A stretch of DNA of 64,000 nt, taken from assembly GCA_950072105.1 (NCBI GenBank), contig CATMOE010000002.1:1-64000 (forward strand), read 5' to 3'. The stretch is from an uncultured Dehalococcoidia bacterium. Its GTDB lineage: Bacteria > Chloroflexota > Dehalococcoidia > Lucifugimonadales > UBA3495. Shown here in pieces: positions 1-5,423 of this stretch. Both the position numbers and the translations under genes were made by a program. Each line of letters begins with the position of its first letter. Within the stretch, counting starts at the first letter, position 1. Below the pieces are notes generated by a model, which saw nothing but the letters and a program-made list of their open reading frames with translations, was not told the DNA's origin and did no database searches.

Positions 1-75
1 GGGCCCGTAGCTCAGCGGTAGAGCGGTCGGCTCATAACCGATAGGTTGCTGGTTCGACACCAGCCGGGCCCACCA
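1..75 (+). tRNA. tRNA with CAT anticodon, most likely tRNA-Ile2 (lysidine-modified); elongator Met possible
   Basis: Acceptor stem GGGCCCG/CGGGCCC, discriminator A and encoded CCA (73-75); anticodon arm GTCGG-CTCATAA-CCGAT; T-arm GGTTCGA. G1-C72 pair and no GGG/CCC anticodon stem exclude the initiator; C4-G69/C5-G68 fit TilS determinants. Confidence 0.9.
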
Positions 76-327
76 CTTACATCTCTAGTCTCATAGATTT
101 ACGAAGGTTTCCAGGACATTCAATTTAGAGCCACAACTTATCTTGGTCAAGGTGTATTGAATGAGGTGAGGTGTTTGACCAGCATCAAGAGGCGAGGATA
201 TACTCTGTTTAATCTGCTGGATTAACCTACCACCCCCGGACATGGAATATCCCGACGAACTTCCTGAGTATTTGTCAGCATGGTTCTGCGAACCACTAAT
301 CGCGTTTTATAGCGGGGAATCAACCCG

Positions 328-1478
328 ATGACTTCAAGTCAATCTTCATTGGTCAAAACACAACCGATGCCTTTAGGGTTCCGTGAAGACACGCTCGTTT
401 CTAACCTTCTTCTCGATCCAAACAACCCTAGGTTGTCTGCTGCAGAACCGACCACAGACCAAGCGGAGCTAACACGGCGCTTGTGGGTTGAAATGGCTGT
501 GGATGAGCTCGTTTATTCTATTGCCTATAACAGCTACTACAAGACTGAGCCACTACTCGTCGTCCAGAACTCCGAGGGGCAGGCTGGCCCGGACTTGGAG
601 AAGATGGTTGTAATCGAAGGCAACCGACGACTTGCAGCTGTGAAGATTCTTGTTGACGACCATCTCAGAGAGACTCTAAAAATCACGTCAGCCCCAACTA
701 TCACTGAAGCCGCAAAGGCACAATTGGCCGCCTCCCAGTAATCACCTACCAGTCAAGAAAAGAGATTTGGACCTACATCGGGTTTAAACATATCAATGGT
801 CCAAAACCTTGGGATTCGTACAGCAAGGCCCATCATATTGCAACGGTTCACGAGAACTACAGCCAATCACTCGATGACATAGCTCGCCAGATAGGTGATA
901 GGCATACGACGGTACTGAGATTGTATCGTGGCTACCGCGTGCTTCAGCAGGCTCAGAAAGAGGCAGGGTTCGATATTGAGGATCGCTACAAGAGCAGGTT
1001 CGCATTCTCCCACTTATACACAGCCTTAGATCAGCCGGATTTCCTCCACTTTGTTGGCGTAGACGCCCATGCTGATCCAGACTCCCAATCAGTCCCCAAA
1101 GATAATTTATCCAACCTGTCCGAATTGATGACGTGGTTGTACGGCAAAAAGAGCCAAGGAATACAGCCGCTAGTTCATTCCCAGAACCCGGACTTAAAAA
1201 GACTTCGAGAAGCGATAGCCAATCCACAATCGTTGACTGCGTTGCGGGCTGGTCGGTCGCTCGATTTAGCACACGAATTGAGCATTCCCGACAACCGCAA
1301 ACTACGTACCGCGCTAACCTTCGCTAAGCAATATTTACAAGGGGCTAGAGGAGCTGTTGTAACTGGTTACGAAGGGGATCAAGACCTCTACGACATAGCC
1401 AAAGACATCATGATGCTCGCCAGTGCCACGTTGGGTGACATGGAGAAAGCCCGATCTTCCGGTTCCTTGAAATTATAG
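328..1478 (+). pseudogene. ParB/Srx N-terminal domain protein split by a single-base (-1) frameshift near 727-731 (about 383 aa if repaired)
   Basis: ORF 328-741 has ParB/Srx motifs LLLDPNNPRL and VVIEGNRRLAAVK. The frame of ORF 921-1478 is open from about 723 and reads LPVITYQSRKEIWTYIGFKHINGPKPWDSYSKA...LDDIARQIGD (HTH-like), continuing directly into 921-1478. Confidence 0.8.
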
Positions 1479-1487
1479 CCCGCTTTC

Positions 1488-2486
1488 ATGCCTACTCCCC
1501 TTCCGGCTCTTACAAAGGATTCAATCCAACTCGCTGATTGGATCGAGTTGCAGGCCCTAACAAGCGGTGATGGGAGTGCCAACACGGGTCAATTGGAGCG
1601 GGCTCTCCGCCGGACTGGCACCTTTGATCCAGATGCCCCCGAAGAGGGCGAGGTACCTCACGACTCAGACCATGGCTTGATCGAGGGAAAGGTCGATGAG
1701 GTATTCGCCGAGCTAGAAGACCGAGCTCAGGCGGCTGACTCAGCCTATCCTTTCGAAGTCAGCCGTGCCGAGGTAAAAACCAAAGGGCACATCGAGCAAT
1801 ACATTCCTTACGTATTTTGTTTGTGTTTGTCTATGTTCGGAGACGGTGCGAAACGGCTGAACATCCAAAAAGATGACGACGGGGACCCAGCGGACGACCT
1901 GCCAACATACCCACGCCGCTTGTTTGAGCACATAGCGACGATTGCAGCGGCGAATTACATCGGCGGCGAAGCGGTTAGGTTCGGCTCGCCAAGGCGTGGT
2001 ATGAGTCCTTCATTTATAGACGCCCTGAACGAACTCAGCTGGAGTCATCTTCACGAGGGAGACGGCTACAACAACGATCCCATATTTGGGTCCAAGGATC
2101 GCCATCTAGACATAGTTGCGTGGAAGGATTTTCCTGATCAGCGGACGAGCAAGCTGGTTCTTTTCGGGCAGTGCGCAACTAACAAAGATGACGGGTGGCA
2201 CTCCAAGAAACCAGAGCTTCAAACGGGAGTGTTTTGGGGTAATTGGATCAAGGGCGCTGCCGTCAGCGAACTAATCCGGGCATTTTTCATCCCGCACCGA
2301 GTCACATCGGAAGAATGGGATATGCATGCCAGAGAAGCAGGCCTTTTCTTCGATCGATGTCGCGTTGCCCGGTTCGCGTCCATGGCCGCAGACCGTAGTC
2401 TGACCCACGATTCGGGCGACTGGGATTCGTGTTTAGAATGGGTTAGCAAGATGATGTCTGTTGGCGAAGAGACCGCGGCAGAATGA
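1488..2486 (+). CDS. Conserved-looking hypothetical protein, putative PD-(D/E)XK-like (restriction endonuclease fold) nuclease
   Basis: 332 aa ORF; motif string RLFE...FGSPR...KDRHLDIVAWKDFPD...LVLFGQCAT...W..K resembles E..D..(Q)xC variants of the REase fold; lies between the ParB-like gene and the MTase. Confidence 0.6.
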   Translation: MPTPLPALTKDSIQLADWIELQALTSGDGSANTGQLERALRRTGTFDPDAPEEGEVPHDSDHGLIEGKVDEVFAELEDRAQAADSAYPFEVSRAEVKTKGHIEQYIPYVFCLCLSMFGDGAKRLNIQKDDDGDPADDLPTYPRRLFEHIATIAAANYIGGEAVRFGSPRRGMSPSFIDALNELSWSHLHEGDGYNNDPIFGSKDRHLDIVAWKDFPDQRTSKLVLFGQCATNKDDGWHSKKPELQTGVFWGNWIKGAAVSELIRAFFIPHRVTSEEWDMHAREAGLFFDRCRVARFASMAADRSLTHDSGDWDSCLEWVSKMMSVGEETAAE

Positions 2487-3598
2487 TGGTAAAGGGCTCA
2501 CACAGACTCCATGCTCTCTGCTCGTACTTTGCGATGTTTCCAGGATATTTTGCCCGAGGCCACATCCGCAATCATAGCGCGCCGGGTGAACTGATTTTAG
2601 ACCCCTTCAGCGGACGCGGGACTACCCTGCTAGAGAGTTTGCTTACTCAGAGGAACGCAGTCGCAAGTGACCCAAATCCGGTGGCCTATTGTATCACTCG
2701 GGCAAAAAGCAAATCCCTCCAGCCACAATCGGTTCTTGATCGTATCACCGAGCTGGAGGCAGAATTCGTCGAGACACCAACTGCGGACCTTGAGGAAGAA
2801 CGCGGGTTTCTCCCACGATTCTTCAAGCACGCCTATTACCACACTACTCTCAGAGAGATTCTGTTCCTCCGCAGACACCTCCGGTGGCATACCGATACCA
2901 TTGATTGCTTTATATCAGCTCTGCTGTTGGGGTGCCTCCATGGAGAAAGAGACAAATCTCCTTGCTACCTAAGTAATCAAATGCCCCGGCGGATCAGCAC
3001 AAAGCCAGAGTATTCCGTAAAATACTGGCGGGAACATGACCTCTACCCACATAAGAGGGCAACCTTTGAAATCTTGCGAAGGTGGTCAAGATTTAGACTG
3101 AAGCAGGGGGCGCCGCAGAAGACCGCTCTCGCTCTCCAGGAGGACGTAAGAGACTTGTCCAGGCGACTCCCGTTCATGGAGGGAAAGGTTAAAGCGGTTA
3201 TCACTTCACCTCCGTATTTCAATACGACGAGCTTCGCTGAAGACCAGTGGCTACGTTTATGGGTTCTAGGGGGCGCAAATCACCCTACACGTGCTGGAGC
3301 ATCCAAAGATGATAGGCACACATCGCGATACAAATACTGGCGATTTATCGCCGATGCCTGGCGTGGAATCGCACCCCTGTTAGCTTCCGATGCGACGATT
3401 GTTTGCCGCGTTGGGTTGCATGGTCACAGCATGGAAGACGTCTGCAGGAACATGGTGGCGTCTGTTCGCGCTAGCATCCCTAGTGCCACCCTTTACGGTA
3501 GCCCATTGTTGACGACTCCATCGGCGGATACCGGTAGGCAACAGCTATCCGAGCACAGTCAATACGGGGAGTTGGATTTCATCTTCCGTATGGCTTAG
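2483..3598 (+). CDS. Site-specific DNA amino-methyltransferase (SPPY, probably N4-cytosine)
   Basis: SAM-binding motif I LDPFSGRGTT near the N-terminus and catalytic motif IV ITSPPY downstream; ATGA overlap with the upstream stop codon. Confidence 0.85.
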   Translation: MMVKGSHRLHALCSYFAMFPGYFARGHIRNHSAPGELILDPFSGRGTTLLESLLTQRNAVASDPNPVAYCITRAKSKSLQPQSVLDRITELEAEFVETPTADLEEERGFLPRFFKHAYYHTTLREILFLRRHLRWHTDTIDCFISALLLGCLHGERDKSPCYLSNQMPRRISTKPEYSVKYWREHDLYPHKRATFEILRRWSRFRLKQGAPQKTALALQEDVRDLSRRLPFMEGKVKAVITSPPYFNTTSFAEDQWLRLWVLGGANHPTRAGASKDDRHTSRYKYWRFIADAWRGIAPLLASDATIVCRVGLHGHSMEDVCRNMVASVRASIPSATLYGSPLLTTPSADTGRQQLSEHSQYGELDFIFRMA

Positions 3599-3734
3599 TA
3601 GCCTCCCAGTCTGGGGACGGTTATCTCGGTGATAAAGGTGCTCTTTGACTGGTTCGGGATTACGGCACATAACTAGGACTAGGTTGACAGGAATGTGACA
3701 CGAGGAGCAAACCCCAGCTCCCCCCGCTATAATA

Positions 3735-3835
3735 AATAAGCCAGAGAGCGGGAACCAGGCCGGCCTTAGGATCGAGTCGTTAGGAACACCCGTCCCGTAA
3801 GCGCTTGGGCACAGCGGGGATCTCTCTGGCTTATT
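3735..3835 (+). ncRNA. Candidate structured small RNA (unassigned)
   Basis: Perfect 14-bp terminal inverted repeat AATAAGCCAGAGAG (3735-3748) / CTCTCTGGCTTATT (3822-3835); TATAAT at 3728-3733; + strand terminator-like hairpin downstream. Confidence 0.35.
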
Positions 3836-3854
3836 GATGCAATTACTTTTGGTT

Positions 3855-3898
3855 GGGGTGGCCTGTCGGGCGACGGGGCCACCCCTATTCTTTAGTTT
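3855..3898 (+). terminator. Intrinsic terminator-like hairpin between the island and the convergent LLM gene
   Basis: GGGGTGGCC...GGCCACCCC stem (3855-3885) followed by T-rich TATTCTTTAGTTT on +. Confidence 0.65.
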
Positions 3899-5085
3899 CC
3901 TGCTACCGGGGTCTCTGCCTTGTGGAAGGCGGGAATCACCTCTTTGCCGAATAGCTCCATGGACTCCATCACCTTGTCGTGGGAGATGGTTTCCGTTTGC
4001 ATGATCATCATTACCTGATCTACGCCGATATCCTCGTACATCTGGACGGTCTTGATGCAGCTCTCGGGGTTTCCGGCGATGATGACACCGCGGTCGGAGA
4101 GCACATTGGCATCCAATTGGGCGATGGCCGCCCGGGCGGCGCCGGGACCGGCGTCCAAGGACAGGCCGGCTTCCTCTGCTTGTTGTTTGTGGGCATCGTC
4201 GGACTGGCGCAACCAACGGCTGAAGTCGGCGTTCAGATCATCAGGCACGCCGCCCCAGGCTTCCAATAGCTCTTCGTAGGCGTTGATGCGGCCCTGAATG
4301 TAGGGCTTGTCCGGCCCGAAGAAGGTTTTCATAGACTCGGCGGCAAGCTCCTTGGCTGCCTGGTCGTCCTTGCCGCAGTAGGCATGGACGTTGTTTCCCC
4401 AGAAATTATTGACGAAGGCGCCCACCGGCTCGGCGTCGGTTATGGCGTCGCGGTAGACTTTAACGTGTTCGGCCAGGATATCAACGGCGTAAGACGCCGA
4501 GGACAAGACGCCGATGCCCTTCTGCGCCGCCAGACGGAAGCTCTCGGTTTGGGTGCAGGCCAGGTACATCCGGGGATGGGGCTTTTGGAAGACCCGAGGG
4601 AGTATCCGCCGCGTCGGCACGTTCCAATGCTTGCCTTCCCAGGAGAACTCGTCGGATTGCCACATCTTGGGCAGCATCGTTAGGGCCTCGTCCCACCGTT
4701 CCCGGGTTTCCCGAGGGTCGATGCCCTGTCCGACCTGCTCATAGGCGTTGGACCGCCCGGTGCCGAACTCGACCCGGCCGTCGGTGAGTTGATCCACCAT
4801 AGCCACTCGTTCGGCGATATGGATGGGGTGGTGGCTGGGCAGGATGGACACGCCGAACCCGATCCTGATGTTCTTGGTCCTTTGGCTCAGCGCTCCGAAT
4901 AGGACTTCGGGACATGGAGATCCGGAGAATCCCAACAGAAAGTGGTGCTCGACGAACCAGAGGTTGTCGAACCCCAGCTGATCGGCGAGTTCACATTGGT
5001 CCAGGGTTTCTTTGTAAAGGCTGTTCCAGTCCAGGTCGTTGCCCTGATAGGGCCGCTGCGTTTCGTACAATATTCCAAATTTCAT
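3892..5085 (-). CDS. LLM class flavin-dependent oxidoreductase (luciferase-like monooxygenase)
   Basis: MKFGILYE start with AAGGAG RBS; GFDNLWFVEHHF, HPIHIAERVAMVDQLTDGRVEFGTGR and PRVFQKPHP motifs. Confidence 0.92.
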   Translation of the reverse strand: MKFGILYETQRPYQGNDLDWNSLYKETLDQCELADQLGFDNLWFVEHHFLLGFSGSPCPEVLFGALSQRTKNIRIGFGVSILPSHHPIHIAERVAMVDQLTDGRVEFGTGRSNAYEQVGQGIDPRETRERWDEALTMLPKMWQSDEFSWEGKHWNVPTRRILPRVFQKPHPRMYLACTQTESFRLAAQKGIGVLSSASYAVDILAEHVKVYRDAITDAEPVGAFVNNFWGNNVHAYCGKDDQAAKELAAESMKTFFGPDKPYIQGRINAYEELLEAWGGVPDDLNADFSRWLRQSDDAHKQQAEEAGLSLDAGPGAARAAIAQLDANVLSDRGVIIAGNPESCIKTVQMYEDIGVDQVMMIMQTETISHDKVMESMELFGKEVIPAFHKAETPVAGN

Positions 5086-5372: not shown

Positions 5373-5423
5373 GAACTCATAAGAGGGCGCCCCGATTGCA
5401 TCGGGGCGCCCTCTTATGAGTTC
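5373..5423. terminator. Perfect 24-bp inverted repeat downstream of the VOC gene
   Basis: GAACTCATAAGAGGGCGCCCCGAT-TGC-ATCGGGGCGCCCTCTTATGAGTTC, 15 nt past the stop of 5439-5930. Confidence 0.65.

Follow-up and report, generated by a model that had tools for sequence, protein, structure and literature searches.

The window analysed here, 64,000 nt of the forward strand of a contig (CATMOE010000002.1) from an uncultured Dehalococcoidia bacterium, starts at an end of its contig, in a genome of 4.1 Mb whose DNA is present in marine metagenomes and whose gene content suggests a SAR202-type bacterium; all positions refer to this window. Behind a tRNA(CAT) gene it carries, at 328-3598, a cassette of three genes that encode a ParB-fold protein (gene 1), a probable nuclease (gene 2) and an SPPY methyltransferase (gene 3). 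This copy is probably a decaying three-component restriction-modification (RM)-like cassette. The genes are co-oriented, with a gap of 9 nt between genes 1 and 2 and an ATGA overlap between genes 2 and 3, as a preliminary description made from the letters alone had noted. Its picture of three tightly packed genes needs one amendment: gene 1 is not a single frame but is divided into 328-741 and 708-1478. The motifs it listed for the three genes are all present.

Piece A of gene 1 (328-741, plus strand; 137 aa, ending in TAA) holds the ParB/Srx nucleotide-binding domain, with DPNNPR at 415 and EGNRR at 616, and the frameshift falls just before the last strand of this domain. Piece B (708-1478, plus strand) is in another frame and contains the end of the ParB domain (HING..W), a helix-turn-helix (HTH; GDRHTTVLRLYRG) and a helical C-terminus; its motif YIGFKHINGPKPW lies at 774. 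The two frames overlap at 708-738, the break lies near 730, and the first ATG, GTG or TTG start in the frame of piece B is a TTG at 921. Intact relatives have 382 aa; piece A is 62% identical to their residues 1-133 and piece B 70-72% identical to their residues 130-378. No full-length gene 1 protein above 73% identity was found. As judged from a predicted structure, gene 1 is a ParB/KorB fold with an HTH: the model of an intact relative (locus L024, 62-row alignment, pLDDT 94.4) matches KorB, ParB and Noc over the nucleotide-binding and HTH domains (Foldseek E 8.5e-7 to 1e-5, KorB being at 8.5e-7), which bears out the ParB/Srx and HTH assignment first made from motifs. The D..N.R, EGNRR and H.N motifs are invariant in 62/62 ParBs, and PF02195 is precomputed on 12 of the 120 listed gene 1 homologs. 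According to the available text of Kaljevic et al. (2025; PMC12704722), the nucleotide bound by orphan ParB folds is CTP, ATP or GTP, and such folds are frequently linked to methylases.

Gene 2 (1488-2486, plus strand; 332 aa) is a probable N-terminal winged helix followed by a PD-(D/E)XK-type nuclease fold, to judge from predicted structure and conservation, with DIVAW at 2109 and FGQCA at 2163. It has no Pfam, NCBIfam or PADLOC match, PADLOC matches 0/119 of its relatives, and its profile finds 0 matches among PDB sequences at E 10. The family is large (3002 clusters at 50% identity, 668 at E <= 1e-30) and, through its nuclease, invisible to Pfam and PADLOC. The gene 2 model (pLDDT 91.5) was compared by VIA-align with 48,161 chains, of which 50 matches are listed. 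Residues 7-100 match winged helices (F-112: Z 6.2, rmsd 2.4, 66 aligned), and residues 100-315 match FokI (Z 7.0, rmsd 4.3, 140 aligned), N.BspD6I (6.8), MspJI (6.5), AF1548, PaqCI and AspBHI, most of the top rows for this part being PD-(D/E)XK nucleases. A candidate active site is conserved among 119 sequences: E147, D208 and K240 are present in 119/119, D204 in 118 and Q228 in 105. The restriction-endonuclease-like fold suspected from the D-IVAW...FGQCA pattern finds some backing in both the structural matches and the conserved residues. In the ESM Atlas, the top clusters for gene 2 are unnamed or auto-named, and the HaeII (0.82) and BsoBI (0.80) families are leads only.

Gene 3 (2483-3598, plus strand; 371 aa) is an amino-methyltransferase (Pfam N6_N4_Mtase, E 9.8e-14) with FSGRG at 2606 followed by SPPY at 3206. 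SPPY is suggestive, although not proof, of m4C methylation, and the chemistry is presumably m4C. The protein lacks the C-terminal Q[TA]xxFxP motif present in 18/18 aligned relatives and in 66/74 metagenomic tails; a second frameshift behind this odd tail was considered and rejected, as no other frame restores the motif. Avoidance of four-base palindromes in the genome points to no clear target (GATC 0.82, CGCG 0.71). The closest relatives of gene 3 (49-53%; L104:2-454, L106:3668-4915 and L108:3706-4452) stand without a ParB-nuclease pair. They follow a DndB-like DGQHR protein (in L106 a PADLOC DndB match, E 1.3e-33), and the two genes are possibly a ParB-fold plus methylase system of their own.

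Do the three genes belong together? A locus set was assembled with one genome per species, and the best 80 of 115 confirmed stretches gave 79 loci from many phyla. The ParB gene is directly upstream of the nuclease gene in 79/79. An adjacent methylase, that is, one within 450 nt, is Dam-like in 44/79 and SPPY in 29/79, and in 0/79 are both adjacent; a Dam-like gene lies 0.5-2.5 kb off in a further 5/79, and one locus of the 79 has no methylase. The linkage profiles were built from the same 79 loci, and tblastn with the window's own proteins agrees. In a reverse sample, the best 80 of 305 metagenomic SPPY loci with near-duplicates included, the nuclease gene is directly upstream in 73, not so in 4, and 3 loci are too short (73/77 informative); where there is room, the ParB gene is also present (48/48). 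Among 400 genomes of the window's own phylum, 14 have a ParB match and the nuclease follows 10/10 full-length ones, here with a Dam methylase in 7 and a C5 methylase in 3. Among 200 genomes of its own order, a ParB gene is upstream at 8/8 nuclease places; the spread is patchy (7/200 genomes). A scan of IMG/VR gave 2 loci only. No fused ParB forms of 670-2000 aa were found among 8000 candidates, which is weak evidence, and no parA lies beside the ParB gene in the neighbour clusters. The fixed unit is the ParB-nuclease pair and the methylase is exchangeable, being Dam-like, SPPY or, in a distant branch, C5-type. The co-occurrence and gene order expected at the outset therefore hold for the pair, and the SPPY gene is one of three interchangeable partners.

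A nuclease gene without a ParB gene occurs in 0/79 and 0/8 of these places, though in 5/79 loci the ParB gene is split or incomplete (and in 1 a contig end truncates it). This speaks against an ordinary type II RM system, in which the nuclease would recognise and cut alone and the ParB/KorB-like protein would only regulate, like a C protein. A 380-aa protein with invariant nucleotide-binding motifs far exceeds the needs of a C protein, even if its best structural match is the repressor KorB, and the tight joint descent of ParB and nuclease described below points the same way. A winged helix joined to a nuclease can be a self-contained enzyme (SdaI is among the matches), and among type II systems one often meets isoschizomers whose methylases differ in chemistry. 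Gene 2 is still open here though gene 1 is split; its survival next to a dead gene 1 and a methylase that may be damaged is also in keeping with a nuclease that does no harm when ParB is absent. The type II alternative is considered distinctly unlikely.

Trees were made from 76 of 84 loci, those in which both genes are nearly complete. Distances in the ParB and nuclease trees agree closely (rho 0.90, n=70, Dam or SPPY loci), those of the Dam methylase follow ParB or nuclease poorly (rho 0.24-0.26, n=42), and those of the SPPY methylase stand at rho 0.70 to the core. The Dam/SPPY label switches 11-12 times over the tree, with at least 5 switches forced by strong branches. A single SPPY-linked clade was tried and rejected on both core trees (AU p 5e-44 and 1e-71). 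The HTH helix GD(R/Q/K)HxTVxRLYRG is common to Dam- and SPPY-linked ParBs and differs in six C5-linked ones, as expected if the HTH tracks the target site. Sister cassettes with a Dam and an SPPY partner (L032 against L043 or L052) have ParBs that are 68% identical. This three-way methylase exchange is a natural experiment on where specificity sits.

Some loci have unusual layouts. In L053 and L071 one Dam-like gene lies between two ParB-nuclease pairs that are oriented towards each other, and in L010, L035 and L081 a shared Dam-like gene has a full PD-lambda-5A gene on one side and a ParB-nuclease pair on the other. An EGNRR ParB of a more distant kind, whose partner has 304 aa (L208:4580-6686 and L209:5995-8100), lies, by eye, apparently in a phosphorothioation (Dnd) cluster with no methylase, where the protecting mark could be a phosphorothioate.

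What is the methylase for? It is found within 2.5 kb in 78/79 loci, of one class each and never with both classes adjacent, and such a near-constant presence of a single class fits a needed protective mark. The SPPY methylase distances also follow the core, and no SRA-type methyl-reading domain is seen among the 50 listed gene 2 matches. These observations count against a sensor-gated defence, abortive or modification-dependent, in which the ParB-fold protein would sense nucleotide pools or a phage protein and free the nuclease against modified or host DNA, the methylase being a decoy or accessory. The combination of RM and abortive infection (Abi) proposed for PD-lambda-5 in the available text of PMC9519451 provides a model for it. 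Several findings would suit such a system: the top fold matches of gene 2 include the modification-dependent enzymes MspJI and AspBHI, the Dam partner belongs to the PD-Lambda-5_B family in 13/13 tested, PD-lambda-5A genes share that Dam gene in the three loci noted above, three methylase chemistries are tolerated, and the pairs in L002 and L012 have no methylase of the tested families nearby. On balance, a sensor-gated system is regarded as unlikely.

The preferred reading, for which the chances are put at about even, is that the cassette is an RM system with a required ParB-fold subunit. In intact relatives, the ParB-fold protein and the small winged-helix PD-(D/E)XK nuclease would form the restriction module, and the exchangeable methyltransferase (m6A if Dam-like, presumably m4C if SPPY, or m5C) would shield the host's own sites. 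The ParB subunit would recognise an unmethylated site or load at it and, by analogy with ParB, Noc and KorB, would close on the DNA in a nucleotide-dependent manner; the closed ParB would then license the nuclease, which seems to have little recognition surface of its own. The core pair co-descends and keeps its catalytic and nucleotide-binding residues, and the methylase is swapped yet almost never missing, a pattern that suits self-protection at whatever site the core reads. Site finding, closure on DNA and licensing of the cut are tentatively assigned to ParB because the nuclease is small and ParB brings an HTH and a switch domain. Distant relatives at the defence hotspot of P2 prophages and kinship with the validated PD-lambda-5 system were also counted in favour. 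Complex prediction for the intact ParB-nuclease pair of L024 gave a score of 0.00, which is neither for nor against binding. The chemistry and target of methylation, the identity of the nucleotide, clamping, physical coupling and a role in defence are inferred.

A bolder form of this scheme is a distinct class of RM system in which the nucleotide-switch clamp of ParB replaces the helicase motor of types I and III: the HTH would read the methylation state of a short site, and the clamp would slide and bring in the separately encoded nuclease, while the protecting mark could be set by an m6A, m4C or m5C methylase alike. It is offered tentatively and is somewhat doubtful. If it is true, nucleotide-switch clamps, familiar from chromosome segregation and gene regulation, would also have a place in immunity. 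Kerszman, Glover and Aronovitch reportedly described, in 1967, restriction of lambda with DNA breakdown in W-phi lysogens; since the family includes the W-phi cassette, it may, on this bolder reading, explain that old report.

Relatives of the cassette also reside in phages. An intact gene 1 relative matches 16 phage records, mostly P2-like, and in W-phi, SIAC10 and vB_EcoM-12474 the hotspot between A and Q is filled by a ParB gene, a gene for a nuclease homolog (60-70 bits) and, in convergent orientation, a C5 methylase gene. Pseudomonas phage D14A carries the same trio elsewhere than at the P2 hotspot. Of 5426 complete E. coli genomes, 104 hold one of the two versions found in this species and 36 the other (140 in total). 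In phage L-413C (L215:207-1199) only a shortened ParB gene is left at the hotspot, the nuclease and methylase genes being gone. The available text and tables of Rousset et al. (2022; PMC9122126) describe many validated defence systems at this hotspot. They give the arrangement 'ParBc + DNA methylase + hypothetical' in at least 223 rows (Table S5A), file the trio as system 2, 'RM-like system', with 1136 occurrences in a lumped cluster (Table S5B), and record the E. coli W (W-phi) version as cloned in pFR107 (Table S2B).

A number of results weigh against a restriction system with a ParB subunit. In the same source, as far as its available parts go, pFR107 is among the 'additional tested systems' and was not validated after eight phages, which were grown on MG1655, and of four lysogens tested, including SIAC10 with the same cassette, only AC1 was reported as protective (PMC9122126). 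This non-validation of the W-phi version is the strongest result against defence. MG1655 is dam+ dcm+, and its Dam and Dcm marks could shield the site, which leaves a loophole. The defence-island enrichment that the preliminary description had proposed to look for was not found, with PADLOC genes near the cassette in 2/75 and far from it in 1/75 (75 of 77 entries per list, crude ORF calls, ParB- and methylase-family genes excluded). The PD-lambda-5A genes, found in 4/79 loci, were missed in this comparison because of that exclusion. The gene 2 model has no Foldseek match at E <= 0.001 (the best is MspJI, 0.079), its structural matches are all middling (Z < 8), and position 230 is Ala in 114/119. 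Mrr-type enzymes have Lys at the equivalent position, and the Lys of gene 2 is displaced from this usual Q-x-K place. As the scores are middling, the nuclease assignment leans on the pattern of hits and the invariant residues. Common descent within the Dam/SPPY branch could account for the conserved HTH equally well. Pairs in L002 (7656-9725) and L012 (6545-8912) have no methylase of a tested family within 7 kb; the ParB gene of L012 is partial. Finally, for many proteins of the ParB fold the available text of PMC12704722 gives binding of ATP or GTP, or none at all; 11/28 bound.

Might the cassette serve its carrier and not defend against phages at all? A selfish or element-stabilising module, acting by post-segregational cutting or by methylation that guards prophage DNA, would accord with the W-phi version lacking validated protection, with the absence of a defence-island context, and with the patchy spread in the order and the decay in the window. 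The position at the P2 hotspot among many validated defence systems and the kinship with PD-lambda-5 speak the other way, and addiction and restriction are not exclusive. This alternative is held to be very unlikely, and an RM system with a ParB-fold subunit stays the preferred explanation of the intact family.

The copy in the window is another matter. Is the break in gene 1 peculiar to one assembly? A contig of run X8, possibly the source of the window, covers 48-3817 with 2 substitutions and 0 gaps, and a contig of RNA run X14 covers 553-911 with 4 substitutions and 0 gaps; runs X10 and X22 cover only the flanks and not the cassette. Locus L102 matches 591-4300 at 99.8%, gap-free. The 90% clusters of piece A and piece B have 67 and 60 members, the 15 listed of each are all fragments of 124-185 aa, and all 30 listed members carry the break. 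With the break present in other assemblies, the copy in the window is probably dead. Two of the 15 listed piece A alleles change the invariant Glu of EGNRR, and one of the 15 loses the stop and reads on out of frame. This is read here as decay shared by the whole population: ParB is encoded in two pieces in this marine population, and the module is likely to be off. Ribosomal frameshifting could in principle still yield a full-length gene 1 product and keep the cassette active in the population. The frames do overlap at 708-738, the break is in all the listed cluster members, and cassette pieces occur in an RNA run (as contigs, not necessarily transcripts). The closest intact relatives, however, have one 382-aa frame, the break has no slippery heptamer of the A-AAA-AAG type, gene 3 lacks its tail motif, and the alleles that lose the EGNRR Glu or the stop fit poorly with a product under use. 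Frameshifting of this kind is highly improbable. The window copy itself matters less than the family, as it is broken, with a population-wide loss of the ParB subunit.

The cassette is foreign and horizontally acquired. The GC content of 328-3598 is 52.1%, against 57.7 +/- 1.9% in 1162 equal-size windows of the genome, of which 0.6% are as low; the lower GC first noted by eye is thus genuine. So is the position directly behind a tRNA gene: the tRNA(CAT) (1-75, plus strand; ARAGORN and Rfam) is a host gene with a variable insertion site behind it, and other DNA follows its 3' end in two same-genus genomes (G001 and G002) from which the cassette is absent. The first base of this tRNA is paired, by which an elongator is told from an initiator, and it is therefore probably an elongator Met or lysidine Ile tRNA. 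In G002 the tRNA and the host block lie about 445 nt apart, with other DNA in between. G001 has different cargo, with an integrase-like ORF (by eye) after the same tRNA (L095:1501-2123) and a 60-nt copy of the 3' part of the tRNA 2.6 kb before the host block (L098:507-566), which indicates that the site is used by integrating elements. The nuclease gene is in 0/7 genomes of the same family in the own-order sample. Adjacency to a tRNA is not a trait of the cassette family (7/79 loci against a control of 8.9%).

The cassette is preceded by a foreign leader (76-327, plus strand) without a match in G001 or G002, in which a sigma-70-like promoter site (175-204) is not above chance (2 found against 3.2 expected). 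It is followed by a foreign trailer (3599-3707, no strand assigned); foreign DNA ends near 3707. Similarity to the cassette-free genomes resumes at 3708-3723, from which it follows that the downstream hairpins (3732-3838 and 3855-3885) are host DNA and not part of the island, which the preliminary description had ending before a terminator. No integrase was found in 76-3707, the genome has a single copy of the final 15-25 nt of the tRNA, giving no duplicated attachment site, and no informative repeat lies within 1-4200. A long inverted repeat at 5373-5423 has parts that recur elsewhere in the genome and in relatives.

The host element outside the cassette (3708-3885, plus strand) consists of a TATAAT at 3728-3733, a stem at 3732-3838 and a hairpin at 3855-3885, and is conserved in G001 and G002. 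Its 107-nt closing stem and strong hairpin are near-unchanged in these genomes, in which coding DNA is 84-90% identical. Folding gives z -2.2, no Rfam family matches 3708-3885 at E <= 1, and among 150 other genomes of the class there is one 30-nt match to 3728-3885. The element is possibly a small RNA, perhaps a 6S-like one.

How does the cassette compare with known systems? The preliminary description could match the architecture to no named system, and indeed there is no full PADLOC match. Among the closest systems is PD-lambda-5, a validated defence system described as compact RM plus Abi in the available text of Vassallo et al. (2022; PMC9519451). Piece A matches PD-Lambda-5_A (PADLOC, E 1.4e-11), the N-terminus of PD-lambda-5 A is homologous to the cassette ParB/Srx domain (hhalign 99.7%, E 8e-27), and the Dam-like partner of cassette relatives belongs to the PD-Lambda-5_B family in 13/13 tested. 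There are also differences. Only the first 100-260 of the 430-500 positions of PD-Lambda-5_A match cassette ParBs, whereas true A proteins (L010 and L044) reach 444 and 622 bits; PD-lambda-5 A has a gap across the cassette HTH and, in its longer C-terminus, a HEPN-like His motif (by eye); and the system has two genes, with no separate nuclease gene. Its methylase is a Dam-like D12 enzyme and that of the window an SPPY enzyme. PD-Lambda-5_B is not among the best 25 of 43 PADLOC matches for gene 3, and the window's genome has no Dam-profile match anywhere. PD-lambda-5 is a cousin of the cassette, not a match.

Component A of PDC-M38 is a partial likeness. Positions of about 12-340 of its 715-position profile match gene 1 and relatives (12-110 piece A and 133-330 piece B) at low scores of 50-85 bits, but its other half matches neither gene 2 nor 118 relatives. 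No other PDC-M38 model is seen on genes 2 or 3 among the matches listed, and a literature search for PDC-M38 found nothing. With the CTP-dependent clamps ParB, Noc and KorB the cassette ParB shares the order of nucleotide-binding and HTH domains and the invariant G.RR motif, but it has EGNRR in place of their GERR box and is linked to a nuclease and a methylase. With PD-(D/E)XK restriction enzymes the cassette probably shares the fold of the catalytic domain (Z 6-7), and it has the D..D and Q motif and a methylase partner in common with them; it differs in having Q-C-A with an invariant Lys twelve residues on, and an obligate third gene of ParB fold. Unlike type I and III systems, it is without a helicase-type motor. 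A literature search found no restriction system driven by a ParB-type clamp and no name or mechanism for the trio, which was also not found in the available text of Kaljevic et al. (2025; PMC12704722); preprint tables (DefensePredictor, Mordret et al., PADLOC PDC) may list the family.

Also among the closest is the 'RM-like' trio of P2 prophages (orf98, orf96 and mth in W-phi), which is unnamed and given no mechanism in the available parts of Rousset et al. (2022; PMC9122126); the C5 form of the architecture was thus already listed and cloned. W-phi orf98 is a full-length ParB homolog like gene 1 (226 bits, profile 8-366), orf96 resembles gene 2 (E 8e-18, 61 bits, profile 9-283), PHROG 3984 matches both orf96 and gene 2, and the methylase is adjacent as in the window. 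In the P2 trio the methylase is a convergent C5-cytosine enzyme, in the window a co-oriented SPPY one, and the P2 ParB gene is intact, with 24-32% identity and another HTH helix, whereas that of the window is broken. The window cassette is a variant of the P2 trio, because its gene 3 is an N6_N4_Mtase with SPPY and not a C5 enzyme. The family is unnamed but catalogued; new here are the SPPY partner and the exchange among three kinds of methylase.

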